From NCBI GenBank assembly GCA_035402805.1, contig DAONDY010000002.1:149963-213962 (forward strand): DNA of 64,000 bases, given 5' to 3'. The stretch comes from Candidatus Woesebacteria bacterium. GTDB taxonomy: Bacteria > Patescibacteriota > Microgenomatia > UBA12405. Below the pieces are notes generated by a model. It was not told where the DNA came from. It worked only from the letters and a program-made list of their open reading frames with translations, and made no database searches. Numbering within the stretch: position 1 is the stretch's first letter; the number at the start of each line of letters is the position of its first letter. Both the position numbers and the translations under genes were made by a program. Shown here piece after piece: positions 1,338-63,002 of the stretch.

Positions 1338-1452
1338 CCTTCCTCCCCGATATTTATCGGGGTATCCTCCCTTATCAAGGGAGGAAGTATTATCTTTTAA
1401 TTTCTCCCTTTGTTAAGGGGAGATGTTGAACGAAGTGAAACAGAGAGGATTA
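1338..1452 (+). repeat. Intergenic palindromic repeat unit, family B copy B1: successive GC-rich hairpins (ccccgatatttatcgggg; tcctcccttatcaagggagga; tctccctttgttaaggggaga) ending ...aacagagaggatt
   Basis: Near-identical core tttctccctttgttaaggggagatgt...gacagagaggatt also at ~37460-37530 and 40001-40047. Related to right terminal repeat of DUF559 element at 51650-51704. Confidence 0.7.
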
Positions 1453-8253: not shown

Positions 8254-8841
8254 ATGTATTATCACAGAAGATCGATTAGATTAAAGGGATATAATTATTC
8301 ACAAAATTGGTTTTATTTTGTAACCATATGTGCCAAAAATAGAGGTAATGTTTTTGGTGAAATTGTAGGGGCGAGGCGTGACTCGCCCTTAATTAATAAA
8401 AATAATATATTTGCAAACGATCTGAATAGTAATTTATTCGAAATGAAATTAAATCAAAATGGGGAAATTATTGATGAAATTTGGAAATCATTATCAATTC
8501 ATCATAATGTAATTTTGGATGAATTTATTATTATGCCAGACCATATACATTTTATTTTGGTAATTAAAAATGACTTAAATAAAAATCAAAATAAATTGGA
8601 AAATAATGAAAATTTGATATTAAAAAATAATAATAAGGGCGAGTCACGCCTCGCCCCTACATTAGGGTGGATTGTTGGAATTTTTAAAACAGAATCAACA
8701 AAACGAATTAATAAATTAAATGAGACGCCAAAAATTCAATTATGGCAACGCAATTATTATGAAAGAGTTATTCGTAATGAAAAAGAGTATTTGATGATTA
8801 AAAAATATATTAGAGATAATCCAAAAAATCTAGGTTTATAA
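8254..8841 (+). CDS. RayT-like (REP-associated) Y1 HUH transposase of the IS200/IS605 superfamily (195 aa)
   Basis: N-terminal YHRRSIRLKGYNYSQ..YFVTICAKNR signature of TnpA-REP proteins. HUH motif MPDHIHFIL. RAPTLG-like motif SRLAPTLGWIVGIFK. C-terminal catalytic Tyr region QRNYYERVIRNE. Confidence 0.8.
   Translation: MYYHRRSIRLKGYNYSQNWFYFVTICAKNRGNVFGEIVGARRDSPLINKNNIFANDLNSNLFEMKLNQNGEIIDEIWKSLSIHHNVILDEFIIMPDHIHFILVIKNDLNKNQNKLENNENLILKNNNKGESRLAPTLGWIVGIFKTESTKRINKLNETPKIQLWQRNYYERVIRNEKEYLMIKKYIRDNPKNLGL
8361..8675 (+). repeat. Perfect 28-bp inverted repeat pair (tgtaggggcgaggcgtgactcgccctta at ~8361-8388 and its reverse complement at ~8648-8675), each itself a gggcgag/ctcgccc hairpin, lying in-frame inside the transposase ORF and bracketing the HUH motif
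   Basis: Seen in sequence by reverse-complement comparison. Confidence 0.75.
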
Positions 8842-12171: not shown

Positions 12172-12182
12172 AAATCTTATTA

Positions 12183-12265
12183 AAAACTCTCGTTACAAAT
12201 TTTTTATAATCGGCGAATGTGCGTCGCACGTTCGATATTACAAAAAATTGCAACTTCGACTTTTT
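12183..12265 (+). repeat. Intergenic repeat family A, copy A1 (~85 bp; outer arms gttacaaattttttat / acaaaaaattgcaac, inner hairpin gaatgtgcg-tc-gcacgttcg)
   Basis: 80-90% identity by eye to copies at 37241-37330 and 58988-59075. Lies between two minus-strand genes. Confidence 0.7.
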
Positions 12266-12284
12266 AATTATTTTATAAATCATA

Positions 12285-16363: not shown

Positions 16364-19300
16364 ACTGGAAGAAAATCTTTTTATTAGCTTTGATCTTTTT
16401 TATTAGTAGTTTAGTTTCAGCCAGAGTCTTTTATGGCCGATTTAAAATAATTTTTGCAGCTCAAACAACAATAACATCAAGGTTAGATTTTGATGCAGGT
16501 ACTTTTGAAGGAACTGAAAGTCAAAGTAAGGAGGGAGATTTAAAATTAAAAGCCAGTGGAAATTGGAATCCGAGAGTATTTAAAACACCAAAAGTGACAC
16601 TAACTAATCAATCAGCTATTGCCAGTGATGGAACGGATGTTTATTTATTAGCAGGTCAAGATAGATATTTTACTAAATATATTTCCAGTGAAGATAGATG
16701 GGTAACTTTAGAGAATGCACCACATTTAGCTTATAACGGGGCAGATTTGGTCGTGTTAGGAGATTATGTTTATGCAATATATGGAAGTAATACTAAAAAT
16801 TTCAGTCGTTATTCAATAATGACTAATACATGGGAAGAGAGAGAAGATATGCCAGATTTAGTGGCAAATGGATCAACTATTGAAACTGATGGAACTTATA
16901 TTTATGCTTTAAGGGGGAATTCAACTTCTGATTTTTGGAAATATAATCCAACTACTGACAAGTGGTCTGATTTAAATACACCACCAGCAGCAATTGGCTC
17001 TGGAGCTAGTTTAGTCTATAAAGATGGTTACTTATATACACCGAGAGGAGCTTCTAACACAACTTTTTATCGATATAACATTAGTAATGGGATATGGTAC
17101 ACAATGCAAAATATCCCGGCGACTGTAGGAAGTAATCATAAATCTACAGTTTTAGGTGATTATATTTATGTAAATAGAGATACTAACACAAATAGTTTTT
17201 ATCGTTTTAATGTGGGGACTACAGCTTGGCAGACAATTGCCAATATTCCACAATTGACTCAATATGTAGGATCAGTGGCAGTGGGAGATACTGCGACTGG
17301 TTTTGTTTATGTGTTTAGAGGCAATGGTTATTATGACTTTTGGAAATATAATCCGAGAGATAATACTTTCTTGGGATTAACAGATTTACCTAATACCCCA
17401 AATACTGGCGCTGATTTACTTTATATGGATAATTACGTTTATTTTAGGAGGGGAAATAGCTCAAATTCTTTTTATAGATACAACACAGCAGTTGGTGGTA
17501 CTTGGGCAACAATGGCAAATGCTCCGGCAACTTTTGCTGATGATAATAGGGGAGTTAAAGCAGGAAATTATCTATATTATTTCAGAGGAAGTGGTGGAGC
17601 TAATACTTTTTATAGATATGATCCTAGTGTTGGAGTTGGTGGTACTTGGGCAACTATGTTGAGTACTCCGACAGCTTTGACGATTGGAGCTGGAGGAGCT
17701 TTGGCTTATCCAGGATCAGGGAATTATATTTATGCGACAAGAGGTGGAAATAATAGAACTTTTATGAGGTATACGATTGGAGTAGGAGAAACTTGGGATG
17801 ATGCAGTAGTAGCAGATTTACCTGATAATGCTGAACAGGGTTATGGATCAAGAATGACAAGTGATGGGACTAATATTTACTATATTTCAGGGAATGGAAT
17901 GGCTAATTTATATAAATATACAATAGCTGATAACATCTGGACAAGGTTGGGAACTTTACCTTTTTCACCTTATTACGGAACAGATATTAGTTATTATAAT
18001 AATAAAATTTATGTATTAGCAGGTAACTTAAAATCGGATTTTTGGGAATATTCTATTGATGATGAAAGTTGGAGATTATTACCACCAATACAAAGTTATG
18101 GGTTAACAGAGATCGGAGTTTGGAATGGTGGTTCGATTGTGGGTGATGGAAGTGGAACTTTTTATATTGAAGCGGGCAATAATAATACTAGATTTTTTAG
18201 TTATAGTGTAGGGAGTAGCAATTATCCAAGTAATGGAATATGGACAAGCGCTACAATTGATTTAAATTATGTAAAAAGTTGGTCGCCAATAGGGATAGAA
18301 TCGAGTACTTTGCCAGGGACATCTATAAATTGGGAGACAAGAACTAGTAATGATCGAATAAACTGGGAAATTTGGAAAGCAGGAGTAGGAACTAGTATAA
18401 CTTCAACTCCAAACAGATATATTCAATTGAGAATAACCTTAAATTCTGACGGGAGCCAAACTCCAACATTAAATTCGGTAGTAATAAATTATGTTGGTGA
18501 TTTAGAAAACCCAACTAATCCAAATAATATAATAGGCTTATCTCAACAGGTGTCAGGAATAGGATTGTCTAGTGGTGGTACTTATAATTATTTAGCACCT
18601 TATTTTAATTGGAGTGGAAGTACTGATGTAGATACTGGAGTGGCTGGTTATTATGTTTACTTTGGAATTGATTCAACCGCGGTTCCCGATATTAACGGGT
18701 CTTTTAGAACTAGTGCTGATTATTTAGTTAGTGATCCAATGGATCAAACAACTTATTATTTGAGATTAAAAACAGTGGATGAAGCCGGTAATAAAAGTGA
18801 AGCAATGACAGCTTTTATTTATACTTATAATGGAGTGTCTCCACCAACAATATTAAGTAAAAGTTTGACAACAGATTTTGAATTGGGGACAACTGATAGT
18901 GTAAATATTAGTGATAATCAGATTAAATTGGCATCGAAAGCTGGTTTTTGGCAACAAAATAGACTAGGACCATTGTCGGGAACTATTAGTTATGGATCGG
19001 GTTTTGCTTATTCAGCAACTAGGAACAAATTATATATCTTAAGAGGGACAAACAGTAATTCTTTTTATCAATATGACTTGACAACTAATATTGGATCAAC
19101 TTTGGCTAATGCACCAGGAACTGTATATTATGGAAGTGATTTAGTTGAAGGTCCAAGTGGTTATTTATATGCCTTGAGAGGTAATAATACTAATGGTTTT
19201 TGGAGATATGATTTGGCAGCTGGGACTTGGTCTGATGTATTGGCGGCAGATACTCCACAACCAGTTTATTATGGAGGATCTTTAGTTTTTGATGGAGATA

Positions 19301-22300
19301 GATATATTTATGCTTTAAAAGGGAATACAGATGATACTTTTATGAGATACGATACTATGACTGATAGTTGGGAAGTTTTAGATAATATTGATTTTGGAGC
19401 ACCGATACAACAACTTAATAATAATGTTTATGATGGAGCAGACTTGGCTTTTGATGGTAATCATGAAATTTATGCAATTCAAGGAGGAAGTAAAACTGGT
19501 TTCTCGGTTTATAATATTAGTAGTGAAAAGTGGAGTCAGTTAGGAAATTTACCAGTAATGGCTGGAGCTGGATCGCAAATAGAGTTTGATGCTGATAATA
19601 ATGCTATTTATTATTCACCGGGGTGGGGAAGAAATTTCTTCTATAAATATAGCATTGAAAGCCAAAGCTGGAGTGAACTAGCAGAGGTACCTTATGTGGT
19701 AGGGGCAGGATCAGCTTTAAAAAAAGTTGGTGATAATATATTTTTGGCAATAGGAGGAGGAAGTGCAAATATTTATAAATATTCCATAAGTAAAAATGCT
19801 TGGTCGGTACCGACAATGGGATTGTTTGGTGGTTTTTTTAGGGGTAGTGACAGTAGAAATTTTACTTATGGTGCAGATATAGTTAAAGGAGATGGGGATT
19901 ATTATTATTTGACTAGAGGTAATTACGATAATCTCTTTGTTAGATATAATCCTGAAACTGGAGTGGCAACAAAAATGGCTGATGCTCCAGGAGGTTTTTA
20001 TAGTGGTGGAGATTTAACTTATGATAGTGTGGCTAATAAAATTTATGCTATTACTAATCCTAATTATAGAAAATTATTTGTCTATGATATAGCGACTGAT
20101 GTTTGGAGTGAAGAAATTAATGACCCACCACCGGCTGACGCTGCTGATGGAGGAGCGATGTCTTTTGATGGATCTAAATATATTTATTGGATTAGAGGTA
20201 TTGGTCAAAGTTTTTATAGATTTGATACTCAAGGAGTGGGAACTAGTAAGTGGTCAAAACTTCCAAATGTGCCTTTGGCAATTGGGGCTGGTGGCGATTT
20301 AGTAGTTAAAGGTGATTATATCTATAGTTTAAGAGGAGCTGCTTCAACCAGCTTTTTAAGATTTGATATTGGAACAACAACTTGGTCTGATGTGGCAGTA
20401 GCTGATTTACCATCTGGGATGACAGTAACAACAGATGGATTTTTAGTTGATTTAGGTGGAAACAAATTAATGGCTTGTCGAGGAAATAATACTAATACTT
20501 GTTATGAATATTCTATTAGTGATAACAGTTGGCAATTAATAGATGGAACTTTTGGACCATATATTTATAGAGGAGCAGCGGGAGCTAGTAATGGGGAAAA
20601 TAGAGCTTTTATAATTCCAGGAAATGGAACAGTAAATACACCAAATAATGGAATATACAGTTATGTAAGTCAAGGAAGTGATTCTGCTTATGAAGAAGAT
20701 GGTAGTTATATTAGTCCAGTTTATGATCTAGATATGGTTTATCGTTTTGCTAATTTAAAAGTTGGTGTATCAATGCCAAATAATACCGATTTGAATGTTT
20801 ATACAAAAACTTCTAGTGATAATGTTGAATGGAGTGATTGGGCTTTGGTTAGTGATAAAAAGATTATTGGAAATGATTGGATTTATAAAATAAATTCAAT
20901 ACCTGGTCGATATTTAATGATCAAATTAAACTTGTCCTCTAGTGATGGAATAAAAACTGGTGTAGTTAATGATTACCAAATTAGTTATTACCAAGATTTA
21001 GATCCGCCAAATAATCCGACGGAATTAAGTGTTTATCAGAATATTAGTAAAGGAACAACTTTAACTTCGGGAGTTTGGAATAATAGTACAACTCCTTATT
21101 TTGAATGGAATACAGGTACAGATGGAGACAATGGTTCAGGAGTGGCGGGTTATTATACTTATTTTAATCTAGGATCAACTGCTGATCCGGCAGTTTTAGG
21201 AACTTATACAACAGCACCTAATTTTAGTGGAGTTGGCTTATCTAGCGGGCAAACATACTTTTTCCGAATGAAGACTAAAGATAGTGCCAATAATATAAGT
21301 AGTGAAGTTGGAACAACTTTTGTCTATAAATTAGATAATACGCCGCCAGTTAATCCAATAACTATTTCAGTTGATCCACCAGGGTATACAAACACTAATA
21401 ATTTTAATTTTACTTGGTCTTCAGGAAGTGATGTTGGTTCATCAGTATCGGCTTATTGTTATAAAGTAGGAATAGGTGGAACTGAGAGTTGTATTCAGGG
21501 AATAGGGATAACTGGTGTTAGTGGAGTGCAAGCTTATCAAACAGGAACTAATACTTTCTATTTGAGAGTAAAAGACACAGCTAATAACTATGCGACTGAT
21601 TATGCTACGGCAAGTTTTTATTACAGTTCAATAGCTCCTGGAGCACCAAAAAATTTAGCAGTAGGGCCAACTATTAATTCAGTTAATGAATTTGCCTTTT
21701 CTTGGCAAGCACCAGACTTGTTTTATGGTCAACAAGTTGGATTGAGATATTATTATTCAATTAATGAAGAGCCTTCATCTTCAAATGTCAATAAAATTGG
21801 TTTAGCTGAAACTTATTTATCGAGTGGTCCTTATGCCACCAGAAAAGACAGTAACACTTTTTATGTGGTAGCAAAAGATGAAGCAGGAAATATTGATTAT
21901 AATAATTTTACTTCGGTTCAATTTGAAGCCAAAACTTCAGCTCCTGGAATTCCTTTAAATACTGATATTTCTGATGTATCAGTTAAAGAAACTAATAATT
22001 GGAGGTTGGCTTTGGCTTGGGAAAGTCCGGAAGTAAGTGGTTCAGGAATTGCCAATTATAAAGTTTACAGGTCAGGGGTGACAGATGCTAATTGTAGTAC
22101 TGATATGGATGACTTTACTAATATCTCTTCAACTAGTAGTGAATCATTTGTGGATACAAATTTAAAACAAACAAAATATTATTATTGTGTAACAGCTTGT
22201 GATTCAACTAATGAATGTAGTGCACCATCTAGTACAGTATCTTTAACTCCCGATGGAAAATGGCGGGTAGCTCCAACTTTATTAGATGGTCCAAGTGCGG

Positions 22301-37217: not shown

Positions 37218-37240
37218 ACTTGTATTATCTCATTAAATTA

Positions 37241-37330
37241 AATTCTCGTCACAAATTTTTTATGTCTGGTGAATGTGGTCGCCCACGTTCAAGGACACAA
37301 AAAATTGTGTCTTCGAACTTAATTTATGTC
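37241..37330 (+). repeat. Intergenic repeat family A, copy A2 (inner hairpin gaatgtgg-tcgc-ccacgttc)
   Basis: Alignment by eye to A1/A3. Between divergent murB and ruvC. Confidence 0.7.
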
Positions 37331-37409: not shown

Positions 37410-37530
37410 TAATTAAATCCCTCTTGTCCTGCGGACATCCTCCCTCAACGAGGGCGGAAGTCTTTTTATTTTTCTCCCTTTGTTAAGGGGAGATGTCTCC
37501 ACGCTAACGCGGGGAGACAGAGAGGATTTT
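37410..37530 (+). repeat. Family B repeat unit, copy B2 (…tcctccctcaacgagggcgga…ttttctccctttgttaaggggagatgtctcc…ggggagacagagaggatttt). Coordinates +/-10 bp.
   Basis: Same core as B1 and B3. Lies ~80 bp downstream of A2 and ends ~15 bp before ruvC start. Confidence 0.65.
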
Positions 37531-39612: not shown

Positions 39613-39870
39613 TTATTCGGTTTGGATACCAAGTAACCAAAGAACAGCTTCTTTTCGATAACGGCGATCACCACGAGCATTAATGCGGATAGCGGGGAGT
39701 TTGCCTCGTTTACCCCATCTTTTGATGGTTAATTTACTAACGCGGAGTAGATCGGCGACTTCGGCGACGGTTAAAAGGTCGGGAAGATTGTCGATGGAGA
39801 CTCCATTAATTTTTTTGGGGGTGGATGGTTGTTTCACAAGTTTCTCTTGTGATTCGTTTTGATAGTCCAT
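39613..39870 (-). CDS. Excisionase-family helix-turn-helix DNA-binding protein (85 aa)
   Basis: LLTVAEVADLLRVSKLTIKRWGKRGKLPAIRI matches Xis/MerR-like HTH_17 pattern. Confidence 0.6.
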   Translation of the reverse strand: MDYQNESQEKLVKQPSTPKKINGVSIDNLPDLLTVAEVADLLRVSKLTIKRWGKRGKLPAIRINARGDRRYRKEAVLWLLGIQTE

Positions 39871-39956
39871 TGAGTGGCTCCTCTTATATCGGAATAATGA
39901 TTAATTAATATCAGTAAAACATATTAGATATTAGTGTGTCAATAATCAATTAAAAC

Positions 39957-40050
39957 CTACCCCTAACCCCTCCCTTAAAAAAGGAGGGGGAAATGTTTAT
40001 TTTTCTCCCTTTGTTAAGGGGAGATGTCACGAAGTGACAGAGAGGATTTT
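39957..40050 (+). repeat. Family B repeat unit, copy B3 (cccctcccttaaaaaaggagggg hairpin; tctccctttgttaaggggaga hairpin; gtcacgaagtgac hairpin; ...agagaggattttt)
   Basis: Seen in sequence. Overlaps the GTG-extended 5' end of the downstream ORF. Confidence 0.7.
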
Positions 40051-40066
40051 TAGTGTAGAATTGTTT

Positions 40067-41056
40067 ATGGACTATAAAATTGCATTTTTTGGAGTTAAAA
40101 GTTGGGAAAGAGAAATTATAGAAAAAAAGATTGCAGGGTTGGATGTTTTTGGGGTGGGGATTTTTGAGGGGGAAATTCAAGATAATTTAGAATTGGCGGC
40201 AAAATATGACATTATTTCGCCTTTTATTTATTCAAAAATGGATAAAGAGGTGTTGAATAAATTGCCGAATTTGAAAATGATTGCTACCAGATCGACGGGG
40301 ATGGATCATATAGATATTAGTGAGTGTGATAAGAGAAAAATAAAAGTAGTTAATGTACCGATTTATGGTTCAAACACAGTGGCGGAATATACTTTTGCTT
40401 TATTGTTGGCAATTGCTAAAAAAATAGTAGTGGCTCATCAATCAGTGGAGGATGGTGAATTCAATCCAGAGGGTTTAACTGGAGTGGATTTGTATGGAAA
40501 AACTTTAGGAGTAATAGGTTGTGGAAAAATAGGGCAAAACGTGATCAAGATTGCTAAAGGCTTTGGAATGAAGGTTTTAGGAGTTGATGGTAAACAAGAT
40601 CATCTTTTGGCTAAAAAAGTTGGTTTTAAATATGTAAGTTTAGAAGATTGTTTGCAGGAGTCGGATTTTATAACACTTCATGTGCCAGCTATACCAGAGA
40701 CATTTCATATGATTAATAAGAAAAATATTAAATTGATGAAAAAGGGAAGTTATCTGATTAATACTTCGCGGGGAGCGGTAATTGAAACTGAGGCAATTGT
40801 GTGGGCATTAAATAATAAAATTTTGACTGGGGCGGCTTTGGATGTAACCGAGGAAGAAAATCTTTTGGAAAGTATGAGTGTGGTGATGAGCAGAAAAATT
40901 ACTAAAGATGATTTACAGGAGGTTTTGAGTTTTCATATGCTTCGAGATCGGGATGATGTAATATTCACGCCGCATAATGCTTTTAATACTAAAGAAGCAA
41001 TTGAAAGAATTGTAGAAACGACGATTGAAAATATTAAGAACTTTTTAAAGAATTAA
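40067..41056 (+). CDS. D-isomer-specific 2-hydroxyacid dehydrogenase (D-lactate dehydrogenase-like)
   Basis: NAD-binding GVIGCGKIGQNV, catalytic R/E/H triad region (TSRGAVIETEA...FTPHNAF). ORF track frame from 40034, start moved to ATG 40067 (MDYKIAFFG). Confidence 0.75.
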   Translation: MDYKIAFFGVKSWEREIIEKKIAGLDVFGVGIFEGEIQDNLELAAKYDIISPFIYSKMDKEVLNKLPNLKMIATRSTGMDHIDISECDKRKIKVVNVPIYGSNTVAEYTFALLLAIAKKIVVAHQSVEDGEFNPEGLTGVDLYGKTLGVIGCGKIGQNVIKIAKGFGMKVLGVDGKQDHLLAKKVGFKYVSLEDCLQESDFITLHVPAIPETFHMINKKNIKLMKKGSYLINTSRGAVIETEAIVWALNNKILTGAALDVTEEENLLESMSVVMSRKITKDDLQEVLSFHMLRDRDDVIFTPHNAFNTKEAIERIVETTIENIKNFLKN

Positions 41057-43634: not shown

Positions 43635-43836
43635 ATTTTTTTATAAAAAAACCTCGCCGAAGTGCGAGGGTAATGTAAAACAAGATAAATTGTTTTGCCT
43701 CGGCGGGATTTATTTTTGTACCTGCTGTCTTCGGTTGATGGGTTTATTGTACTAAGAAATAGTTTAAATGTAAAGAATTAAAAAAAGAAGGTCTGGGGAA
43801 GCAATGGTTTAAATTGTTTCCCGAGACCTCGGATGT
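43635..43836 (-). promoter_or_regulatory. rplJ leader region containing GC hairpin cctcgc-acttcg-gcgagg followed by U-run 9 nt before the start codon (possible L10-responsive attenuator, or terminator of upstream gene)
   Basis: Hairpin at 43651-43670 plus second GC segment gcctcggcggg at ~43697. Interpretation by analogy with rplJ leader autoregulation. Confidence 0.35.
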
Positions 43837-49787: not shown

Positions 49788-49854
49788 TTGTTTTTATTTA
49801 ATAAATAATTAAGGAATAAATCCCTCTAAATCTCCCTTTGACAAGGGAGACTTT
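49788..49854 (-). promoter_or_regulatory. rplK-rplA intergenic segment with hairpin tctccctttgacaagggaga (possible L1 autoregulatory mRNA site or a fragment of repeat family B)
   Basis: Hairpin seen in sequence. Close resemblance to family-B hairpin tctccctttgttaaggggaga. Confidence 0.3.
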
Positions 49855-51210: not shown

Positions 51211-51704
51211 AAAACCCCTTTGTTTCGCTTCGCTCAACATCTCCCCTTGATAAAGGGGAGAAACATAATAAGATTAAAATGTGAAATATATTACTGATAT
51301 TAAAGCTAAAACTAATAAATTAAACATAAGATATTTAGAATCTTTAAAAAAGGTGGCAAGGAATAATAGAAGTAAGCCAACTCAAGCAGAATTTATAATG
51401 TGGCAACATTTAAGAAAAAATAAATTTGGTTGTAAATTTACGAGACAAAAACCGATTAATAGATTTGTTTTGGATTTTTATTGTTCTAAATTATTGTTAT
51501 GTATAGAAATAGATGGAGAATCTCATTTAAATAGACAAAATTATGATCTAGAAAGAGATAAATTCTTAGAAAATTGTTTAGGTATTAAAACAATTAGATT
51601 TAGTAATGATGAGGTTTTGAATGATTTTTTGAAAGTAAAAGAAAAACTTCTCCCCTTTATCAAGGGGAGATGTCACAAAATGAAATGAGTGACAGAAGGG
51701 TTTT
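51211..51704 (+). mobile_element. Putative compact mobile element: DUF559 endonuclease ORF bounded by ~55-bp imperfect terminal inverted repeats (left aaaacccctttgtttcgcttcgctcaacatctccccttgataaaggggag; right ctcccctttatcaaggggagatgtcac…gtgacagaagggtttt), each containing palindromic hairpins
   Basis: Reverse-complement comparison of both ends: identical 24-nt inner block, matching aaaaccc/gggtttt tips. Right repeat supplies the last 13 codons of the ORF. Confidence 0.6.
51281..51688 (+). CDS. DUF559 (Vsr/MutH-like restriction endonuclease fold) protein, 135 aa
   Basis: …EFIMWQHLRKNKFGCKFTRQKPINRFVLDFYCSKLLLCIEIDGESH… matches DUF559 core (D…E.DG..H). GTG start. Confidence 0.65.
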   Translation: MKYITDIKAKTNKLNIRYLESLKKVARNNRSKPTQAEFIMWQHLRKNKFGCKFTRQKPINRFVLDFYCSKLLLCIEIDGESHLNRQNYDLERDKFLENCLGIKTIRFSNDEVLNDFLKVKEKLLPFIKGRCHKMK

Positions 51705-58982: not shown

Positions 58983-58987
58983 ATTTT

Positions 58988-59075
58988 AAATTCTCGTTAC
59001 AAATTTTTTATGTCTGGTGAATGTGCGGTGCACGTTCAAGGCCATAAAAAATTGCAACTTCGGATTTAAAATTAC
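58988..59075 (+). repeat. Intergenic repeat family A, copy A3 (inner hairpin gaatgtgc-ggt-gcacgttc) between convergent glyA and a small membrane-protein gene
   Basis: Alignment by eye to A1/A2. Confidence 0.7.
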
Positions 59076-62856: not shown

Positions 62857-63002
62857 TAGTTTTGTTTTTTCCAGTTTCGTCCTTTTGGACTCATCAGTAT
62901 CGACAATATCGATAGACTGGAGTGAGCTGAAAAAATAGAGAAGTAATTTAAAAGCAAAAGTGCTTCAAACTATTCATATTCTTTCAGCTCATCAGCCGTG
63001 AT

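Follow-up and report, generated by a model that had tools for sequence, protein, structure and literature searches.

The locus examined here raises the question whether three hairpins directly upstream of a D-2-hydroxyacid dehydrogenase gene serve that gene or belong to a dispersed, possibly mobile family. The hairpin unit, named B3, lies in a 64,000-nt stretch of contig DAONDY010000002.1 from a Candidatus Woesebacteria bacterium, hereafter the window. Comparison with its copies in the window and in other bacteria led to a tentative answer, to which we give slightly less than an even chance. B3 would be a polymorphic, non-autonomous and gene-less doublet of a family resembling miniature inverted-repeat transposable elements (MITEs) and REPINs, the hairpin-forming doublets of repetitive extragenic palindromes (REPs). 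The autonomous form of this family would be a cassette of ~0.5 kb encoding a DUF559 endonuclease. On this view B3, as a non-autonomous member of a dispersed module family, is no regulator devoted to the dehydrogenase gene.

The three hairpins proposed at 39957-40050 in the initial annotation were present as placed and appeared in the minimum-free-energy folds calculated with both RNA and DNA parameters. Hairpin 1 pairs CCCCTCC (39967-39973) with GGAGGGG (39983-39989). Hairpin 2 pairs TCTCCCTTT (40004-40012) with AAGGGGAGA (40016-40024), including one T.G wobble and a GTT loop, and hairpin 3 pairs TGTCAC (40025-40030) with GTGACA (40034-40039) around a GAA loop. Fold z-scores of -2.0 to -2.9 were modest for this one copy alone. 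Terminator-like hairpins called by a scan at 39970-39990 and 39983-40008 correspond to the non-conserved left hairpin and the spacer of B3. The distance from the end of B3 to ATG 40067, given earlier as 17 bp, measured 16-17 nt. Judged by its homologues, the dehydrogenase starts at this ATG, and the mechanical open reading frame (ORF) start at GTG 40034 is an artefact, as had been supposed. The identical database protein has 329 amino acids (aa), the best-matching homologues mostly have 329-332 aa, and conservation among relatives begins at or just before ATG 40067. A -10-like hexamer, TAGAAT, stands 5 nt before this ATG; relatives have CATAAT or TAAAAT there, whether the unit is present or not. 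Because the hexamer lies between B3 and the ATG and is kept in relatives without the unit, B3 may be upstream of the transcription start. A similar hexamer, TACAAT, precedes the ATG of ruvC by 5 nt, and together these hexamers suggest leaderless mRNAs in the lineage of the window. The divergent spacer between a MerR-like gene and the dehydrogenase gene (39870-39950; also seen in the relatives L143, L144, L146 and L147) is highly conserved in its left part.

The repeating entity was a module of ~45-55 nt. It comprises a big hairpin TCTCCC(C)..GGGGAGA, TGT, a small hairpin and ACAGAG(A/G)GG followed by T-rich sequence, with the consensus TCTCCCC..GGGGAGATGT-hp-ACAGAGGGG; TGT and ACA lengthen the small stem. 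B1, B2 and B3 are doublets, in which a left degenerate inverted module (terminus AAATCCCTCT.., small hairpin and CCTCCC..GGGAGG hairpin) and a right intact module are separated by a spacer of 14-18 nt. The ends of B2 form terminal inverted repeats (AAATCCCTCT.. / ..AGAGAGGATTT). The core of 27 nt and the terminus of 12 nt are identical in B1-B3, including the right-module core of B3, and shuffled sequences gave an expectation of 0 chance matches to the core motif. The three units differ widely in their left halves and small hairpins (9, 13 and 20 nt), and outside the core they are only ~50-60% alike. A covariance model (CM), R1, was run on the window without filters and found five strong copies with 42.7-55.1 bits (Table 1). 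The further copies B1, B2 and B4 listed in the initial annotation were recovered with 44.7-55.1 bits, B3 included. The doublet nature of the unit and the two-sided bracketing of the DUF559 gene had both been overlooked. Altogether, the window held three doublets, one solo and two cassette ends, the pattern of short imperfect palindromes dispersed through extragenic regions. The left half of B3 was matched by the model at 39963-40026 on the minus strand with 14.9 bits; its 'CCCTAACCC' variant also forms the left end of a DUF559 cassette in another CPR (candidate phyla radiation) locus, L133, and is present in L004. At their gathering scores, the Rfam 15 curated covariance models matched no B copy and none of 12 loci of other phyla, and permissive Rfam scans returned generic hairpin or miRNA noise only. 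A role as intrinsic terminator was rejected, as the conserved big and small hairpins run into TGT.. and ACAGAG.. and not into a T-run.

Table 1. Modules, doublets and associated genes in the window
Feature	Position	Strand	Description
B1 doublet	1338..1452	+	intact module 1401-1452, 44.7 bits; 3' terminus 4 nt from stop of minus-strand ORF 1456-1869
B2 doublet	37412..37530	+	intact module 37471-37529, 49.8 bits; upstream of ruvC (ATG 37544)
B2 inverted degenerate module	37416-37460	-	R1 19.2 bits
B3	39952..40051	+	gene-less doublet: degenerate inverted module, 14-nt spacer, intact module
B3 left half	39952..39989	-	terminus AAAACCTACCCCTAA and hairpin CCCCTCC/GGAGGGG; inverted degenerate module, 'CCCTAACCC' variant
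B3 right module	40002..40049	+	big hairpin 40004-40024, small hairpin 40025-40039 (GAA loop), terminus GAGAGGATTT; CM 55.1 bits
D-2-hydroxyacid dehydrogenase gene	40067..41056	+	Pfam 2-Hacid_dh/2-Hacid_dh_C; identical 329-aa protein P0101
Degenerate solo module without small hairpin	49817..49852	-	13.2 bits, E about 0.02; between rplK and rplA, sense to operon
B5, left module of DUF559 cassette	51211..51262	-	42.7 bits; terminus toward secE start (51196); unnoticed in earlier note
DUF559 (Vsr-like, EDxHD-type) endonuclease gene	51281..51688	+	Pfam PF04480 E=4.9e-28; PDB 3hrl E=2e-14
B4, right module of DUF559 cassette	51648..51704	+	45.1 bits

A longer element with the same ends as the doublets exists in the DUF559 cassette. 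In the window, the DUF559 gene starts 3' of the left module and its last ~13 codons (LLPFIKGRCHKMK; LLPFIKGRC...) are encoded by the right module. A perfect 26-nt inverted repeat, which B5 (51211-51262) forms with 51648-51673, flanks the gene. The residues E76, D78, H82 and D89, which make up the EDxHD signature, were invariant in 25 DUF559 homologues of 40-83% identity from other Microgenomates/Shapirobacteria. Most of these homologues also had module-encoded C-terminal tails (PFIKGR.., PLIKGR..). The EDxHD motif is the signature of Vsr-like homing endonucleases, and DUF559 has been placed beside Vsr and the homing endonucleases of the I-Bth0305I family (PMC3424549, PMC9403480). In Caulobacter, a DUF559 protein damages DNA in vivo (PMC12907096), and DUF559 is enriched among genes overlapped by inverted repeats (PMC9881135). 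Three more CPR cassettes showed the same layout of terminus, small hairpin and big hairpin, then ATG and gene, then big hairpin, small hairpin and terminus. The cassette of L121 is syntenic with that of the window between secE and nrdR. Its big hairpins are kept save for one C->T in the 5' arm of the right hairpin, which creates a G·T wobble, and the small hairpin of the right module changes from GTCAC..GTGAC in B4 to GTCCC..GGGAC, a compensatory change. The L124 cassette lies between secY and adk with its right end abutting the adk ATG. The L133 cassette lies between frr and rseP, and in its left half it shares the 'ACCCTAACCCTCC..GGAGGG' variant with the left half of B3. As the CPR cassettes consist of two inverted modules around DUF559, B1-B3 have the architecture of the cassette minus the gene.

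The association of gene and module was also found in wider samples. Every inverted module pair with a gap of ~380-445 nt enclosed DUF559 and nothing else (window, L121-123, L175, L056/L095, L069 and L283), in a survey of two independent samples and one later confirming locus. Three other inverted pairs in the range of 200-2000 nt, with gaps of 254, 1182 and 1493 nt, had no DUF559 inside. With tblastn, a DUF559 gene was detected at most ~150 nt from a module in 7 of 120 loci picked by DNA motif only. Short inverted pairs in other loci numbered 51 (-+) and 19 (+-), in addition to many solos. Module termini point outward from the gene in CPR and toward the gene in Rhizobiales, where full outward doublets adjoin. 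One plasmid match, H9, resembled a gene-deleted cassette but was a normal outward doublet. Inverted repeats of 30-62 nt in a related style (CCCCAACCCCTCTCCC..GGGAGAGGGG) flank two phage DUF559 genes.

The DUF559 gene was present or absent at the otherwise conserved secE-nrdR locus among relatives. In L383, whose NrdR is 84% identical, the flanks ..gtattataac and CCGCGGAAT are kept, 44 unrelated nt replace 51211-~51708 and no module is found. The same spacer carries the cassette in L121 and L382 and other inserts in L384 and L385. In the Mesorhizobium loci L056 and L069, homology was confined to a stretch of 543 bp made up of module, gene and module, and the flanks were unrelated. These alignments showed the cassette, modules included, to be the unit of presence and absence between close relatives and to occur in different genomic contexts. 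The neighbourhood of ruvAB, MerR-like gene, spacer and dehydrogenase gene is conserved, and the content of the spacer is variable. L143 and L144 (85% relatives) have a unit at the B3 position that is far more diverged than its flanks, with the right module GTCTCCCTTTagtcAAAGGGAGA-AAC-GGCgaaGCC-GAGAGAGATTT. A 205-aa ORF takes the place of B3 in L146 (84%), and L147 (77%) has no unit there. Across these relatives the B3 site was shown to be polymorphic. Paralogues within a genome share the core and orthologues between genomes differ, which points to concerted evolution or turnover. The small ORFs found in relatives at the positions of B3 and of the DUF559 cassette are unrelated (L146 1869-2486, 205 aa; L384 1128-1334, 68 aa; L385 811-1326, 171 aa). 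To judge from these insertions, both spacers are hot spots for variable inserts.

The suspected conservation of secondary structure was borne out by an alignment of 139 modules to the covariance model, in which 96% of cells were paired and 8 of 13 pairs showed double changes. None of 500 shuffles reached the observed values, and slid controls fell to 53-81% paired. The small hairpin occurred as 20 distinct stems in 118 unique copies, with 667 Watson-Crick pairs, 3 G.T pairs and 0 mismatches before the loop. Its loops were GGCA (46), GAA (24) and also GCA, GGA, GACA and GAAA, mostly GNA or GNNA closed by C-G. The C-GNA-G type is a class of unusually stable DNA mini-hairpins, for example d(GCGAAGC). 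Departures were T.G in 83 and C.A in 33 cases, 44 of the 83 T.G cases being one position fixed by the search pattern. Modules of a variant form that has no small hairpin, GGGGGAGATGT-A-AGAGGGGG, and 'CCCCTAACCCCCCTCC..GGAGGGGG' variants were also seen (L004 7294-7400 and 7556-7600, uncultured bacterium; L304 and L306, IMG/VR).

In the initial annotation, all B-type units were placed on the plus strand, and this arrangement was taken as non-random and indicative of a strand-specific function. The claim did not hold. The full copy B5 and the degenerate solo between rplK and rplA lie on the minus strand, B2 and B3 each have a further inverted degenerate copy as their left half (19.2 and 14.9 bits), and 4 of 6 modules on one strand is not significant. 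GC skew was +0.18 to +0.37 over the whole window, which thus belongs to one replichore and gives no test of strand bias. Of 23 metagenomic loci, 6 had the module on the G-rich strand and 14 had it on the C-rich one, and a replication-strand bias was not supported. Non-randomness survived in relation to the neighbouring genes. Among low-GC solo CPR copies, a start codon on the same strand lay at most 45 nt from the 3' terminus in 17 cases, as against 4 antisense-upstream cases (nominal p about 0.007, with some copies orthologous). B2, B3, B4, B5 and the 49817 copy all aim their 3' terminus at the adjacent gene start, and the terminus of B1 abuts a convergent stop codon. In about 7 of 33 CPR copies, the ATG follows a GAGAGG box at a distance of 5-8 nt. 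Donation of a Shine-Dalgarno sequence by B2 and B3 was rejected, as their GAGG box lies 18-21 nt from the ATG, at the wrong spacing. In high-GC genomes and Rhizobiales, most copies were inverted doublets at gene 3' ends with termini at convergent stop codons (A_down 35 vs S_up 11).

The module was not confined to the lineage of the window. One genome per species was scanned with the pattern TCTCCCN{6,11}GGGGAGATGT. Among the matches listed, most were from Mesorhizobium, Rhizobium and other Hyphomicrobiales; Clostridia, Bacteroidota, Dehalococcoidia, Anaerolineales (Chloroflexota), other metagenome-assembled genomes and Planctomycetota-like and CPR contigs were also represented. The string GGGGAGATGTCACGAAGTGACAGAGGGG is common to rhizobia, rumen Clostridia and Bacteroidota, and B3 has the one-base variant GGGGAGATGTCACGAAGTGACAGAGAGG. 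R1 scores reached up to 70 bits across phyla. In 164 rhizobial plasmid and chromid records the module occurred at 859 places, and it was abundant in IMG/VR contigs. A metagenome scan with the 25-mer core yielded 33 distinct CPR copies, mostly solo right modules after ..agac with a small hairpin that was nearly always different. Solo half-units were the commonest form in CPR. A literature search found no published description of the module, the closest pointer being the enrichment of DUF559 among genes overlapped by inverted repeats, and a module family specifically partnered with DUF559 and spanning phyla appears to be undescribed.

Under the proposed reading as a REPIN/MITE-like family with a DUF559 cassette as its autonomous form, the DUF559 nuclease would recognise the conserved hairpin in extruded or single-stranded DNA and nick or cut there. 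Spread after cutting could proceed by homing-like repair and recombination or by transposition. Doublets and solos would be derivatives served by the nuclease in trans, as REPINs are served by REP-associated tyrosine transposases (RAYTs). Copies would persist mainly in the short gene-boundary spacers of the compact genome, and persisting copies would tend to have their G-rich terminus, often with a GAGG Shine-Dalgarno-like box, facing the downstream start codon.

Several observations weigh against this proposal. The step from an association of DUF559 with the module to mobilisation by DUF559 is one that we infer, and we know of no DUF559 protein that is known or demonstrated to be a transposase. 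The polarity of the modules is reversed between CPR and Rhizobiales, which indicates that there is no single fixed element architecture. In phage DUF559 homologues the module was present in 0 of 80, and related flanking repeats in 2-3 only. At the secE-nrdR locus the cassette was vertically stable over ~15% protein divergence, and in the window its flanks deviate from the B1-B3 core in a few places. The small hairpins of copies that agree fully in the core are unrelated. A shared 27-nt core beside largely dissimilar remaining sequence resembles the outcome of long-term selection or gene conversion, not of recent master copying. Neither a target-site duplication nor a defined insertion signature could be made out at the boundaries of B1-B3 and the cassette; there was no consistent direct repeat, and the AT-rich palindromic flanks (TTTAAA) make the junctions hard to read. 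Three of these facts, namely an invariant core next to a hypervariable small hairpin, the opposite polarity in Rhizobiales and the module-free phage DUF559 genes, leave room for an RNA-level or protein-binding function under purifying selection.

Such a function could be that of an RNA-level gene-boundary element, a 5' leader, mRNA-stabilising hairpin or Shine-Dalgarno donor that is read in sense and perhaps bound or processed by DUF559, which would then act as a Vsr/RAP-like protein that binds or cleaves RNA, with downstream genes depending on the solos. We regard this as unlikely, even though the 17:4 preponderance of solo CPR copies sense-upstream of start codons and the GAGAGG box that about 7 of 33 copies place 5-8 nt ahead of the ATG would be expected of it, and cassette right ends adjoin the next ATG, as at adk in L124. 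The strong structural covariation, with departures favouring the G.U-compatible T.G over C.A at 83:33, fits as well, RNA is the target of Vsr-like RAP/FASTK domains (PMC11879112), and REP elements of S. meliloti are transcribed (PMC2873474). Against these points, the orientation bias could equally reflect purifying selection against antisense insertions, and one ascertained position accounts for 44 of the 83 T.G pairs. GNA triloops favour DNA over RNA, Rfam families were not matched, and Rhizobiales copies are mostly inverted doublets at gene 3' ends. In the window itself, the GAGG boxes of B2 and B3 are too far from the ATG, and the -10-like hexamer 5 nt before ATG 40067 would leave B3 upstream of the transcription start. 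In a different division of roles, the palindromic units would be host repeats in their own right and DUF559 a free-standing homing endonuclease gene that uses or tolerates them as landing sites, which would make B3 an 'empty target'. The EDxHD motif and the membership of the proven homing enzyme I-Bth0305I in the family agree with this, as do gene-less doublets of both polarities, presence and absence at a conserved locus, and cassettes positioned between conserved housekeeping genes like free-standing homing genes of phages. The explanation is nevertheless quite improbable. The DUF559-free secE-nrdR allele of L383 has neither gene nor module, so the modules travelled with the gene and did not pre-exist at the site. 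Moreover, the cassette homology between contexts takes in both modules, and phage DUF559 genes manage without them.

The window also contains, at 8254-8841 on the plus strand, an ORF for a RAYT/IS200-like Y1 transposase (Pfam Y1_Tnp) with the HUH motif PDHIHFIL, which scored 48.7 bits with the NCBIfam model REP_Tyr_transpos, below the cutoff of 80. Its coding sequence holds a perfect 28-nt inverted repeat, TGTAGGGGCGAGGCGTGACTCGCCCTTA, on either side of the HUH motif, in the classic REP form of GTAG plus palindrome. The presence of this ORF, and the use of REP hairpins as single-stranded DNA, would allow the B units to be ordinary REPs or REPINs mobilised by it. This has very little probability, and the RAYT-like protein was rejected as mobiliser because its own perfect inverted repeat (GTAG + GGGGCGAG..CTCGCCC, 8364-8391 / 8634-8661) is unrelated and DUF559 is the only cargo between distant inverted modules. 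Family B also has neither a GTAG nor a CGTC tag, and no replication-strand bias was seen. That the units share no common origin or function, GC-rich hairpins by genes recurring as terminators or by chance, draws on the terminator-like calls at B3 and the modest fold z-scores of the single unit. It is effectively refuted by the identical core of 25-27 nt in unrelated contexts, CM scores up to 70 bits across phyla, the lack of T-runs after the conserved module hairpins and the specific link to DUF559.

For the annotation of the window, these results fix the start codon of the dehydrogenase gene and indicate that the hairpins upstream of it are no gene-specific regulator. What makes the locus interesting is less B3 than its family, a repeat module tied to a nuclease other than RAYT and with its primary sequence kept in at least five phyla. 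To our knowledge, few non-coding features of bacterial genomes are as abundant as REP-like repeats, and the RAYT tyrosine transposase is the sole enzyme that has been tied to them so far. If the link is functional, DUF559, a very widespread domain without an assigned substrate, gains a testable nucleic-acid target. It would also explain spurious ORF tails and inverted-repeat-overlapped genes in annotations (LLPFIKGRC.. and MSGRTEGG.. peptides) and provide a tractable case of a selfish cassette entering the operon spacers of minimal CPR genomes with expression unbroken. More broadly, and with considerable doubt, module and DUF559 may form a two-component system extending from CPR to Alphaproteobacteria, in which a Vsr-like nuclease recognises one folded element composed of an invariant hairpin and a hairpin free to vary. 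Such a system could act either in HUH-independent, REP-like propagation of DNA or as an RNA-processing or insulation device at gene boundaries, like eukaryotic RAP/FASTK proteins.

Other features of the window were recorded alongside. A second repeat family, 'A' (~90 nt), was present at 12179-12270, 37238-37322 and 58983-59074 and forms a long hairpin CTCGTYACAAATTTTTTAT .. ATAAAAAATTGYRACTTCGA around the GC-rich centre GGTGAATGTGGTCGCCCACGTTCAAGG. At gathering score, Rfam gave no match to it. Family A stands directly 5' of a B module that precedes a gene start in several independent CPR loci (L178, L172, L165). A type III hammerhead ribozyme was matched on the minus strand at 62869-62922 with 49.2 bits (gathering score 48.5, E=8e-8), and the leader of ribosomal protein L10 (RF00557, 52.2 bits) was found at its expected place upstream of rplJ, at 43637-43752 on the minus strand. 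The long coding region at 16896-20541 contains several families of internal direct repeats (D1, D6, D10, D11 and D19) and looks like a repeat-domain surface protein of the Kelch or beta-propeller type.

Among known systems, the module comes close to the REP/BIME/REPIN repeats with their RAYTs (REPtrons; BIME, bacterial interspersed mosaic element). Each consists of short imperfect palindromes scattered over extragenic spacers, either singly or as short-linker inverted doublets. In both, a low-copy nuclease gene lies between two inverted repeat copies, the core is homogeneous within a genome and the loops suit single-stranded DNA. The bracketed gene differs, being a DUF559/Vsr-like PD-(D/E)XK (EDxHD) nuclease here and not an HUH tyrosine transposase. 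The module also lacks the GTAG/CGTC tag and is bipartite, with an invariant hairpin, a hypervariable hairpin and a G-rich tail. REPs are lineage-specific, whereas the primary sequence of the module is kept across phyla, and no strand bias was seen. With the EDxHD homing endonucleases, both free-standing and intron- or intein-borne (I-Bth0305I), DUF559 shares the superfamily, the E..D..H..D motif, the position between conserved genes and the presence or absence in close relatives; flanking palindromic modules and gene-less repeat copies are not reported for the known members. Bacterial MITEs (Correia elements, RPEs, Nezha and PATEs) resemble the units in their size of ~100 nt, imperfect terminal inverted repeats, intergenic position by gene starts and stops and polymorphism between strains, and they sometimes donate promoter or translation signals. 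The units differ from them in that no target-site duplication was found, the parent encodes no recognised transposase and solo half-units are commonest in CPR. Finally, the Rhizobium RIME1/2 and Brucella Bru-RS1/2 repeats, intergenic palindromes of about 100 bp in Hyphomicrobiales, fit the rhizobial doublets in size and taxa, including a Brucella locus, L040. The rhizobial doublets may be RIME or Bru-RS repeats, and we know of no link between these repeats and DUF559 or other phyla.

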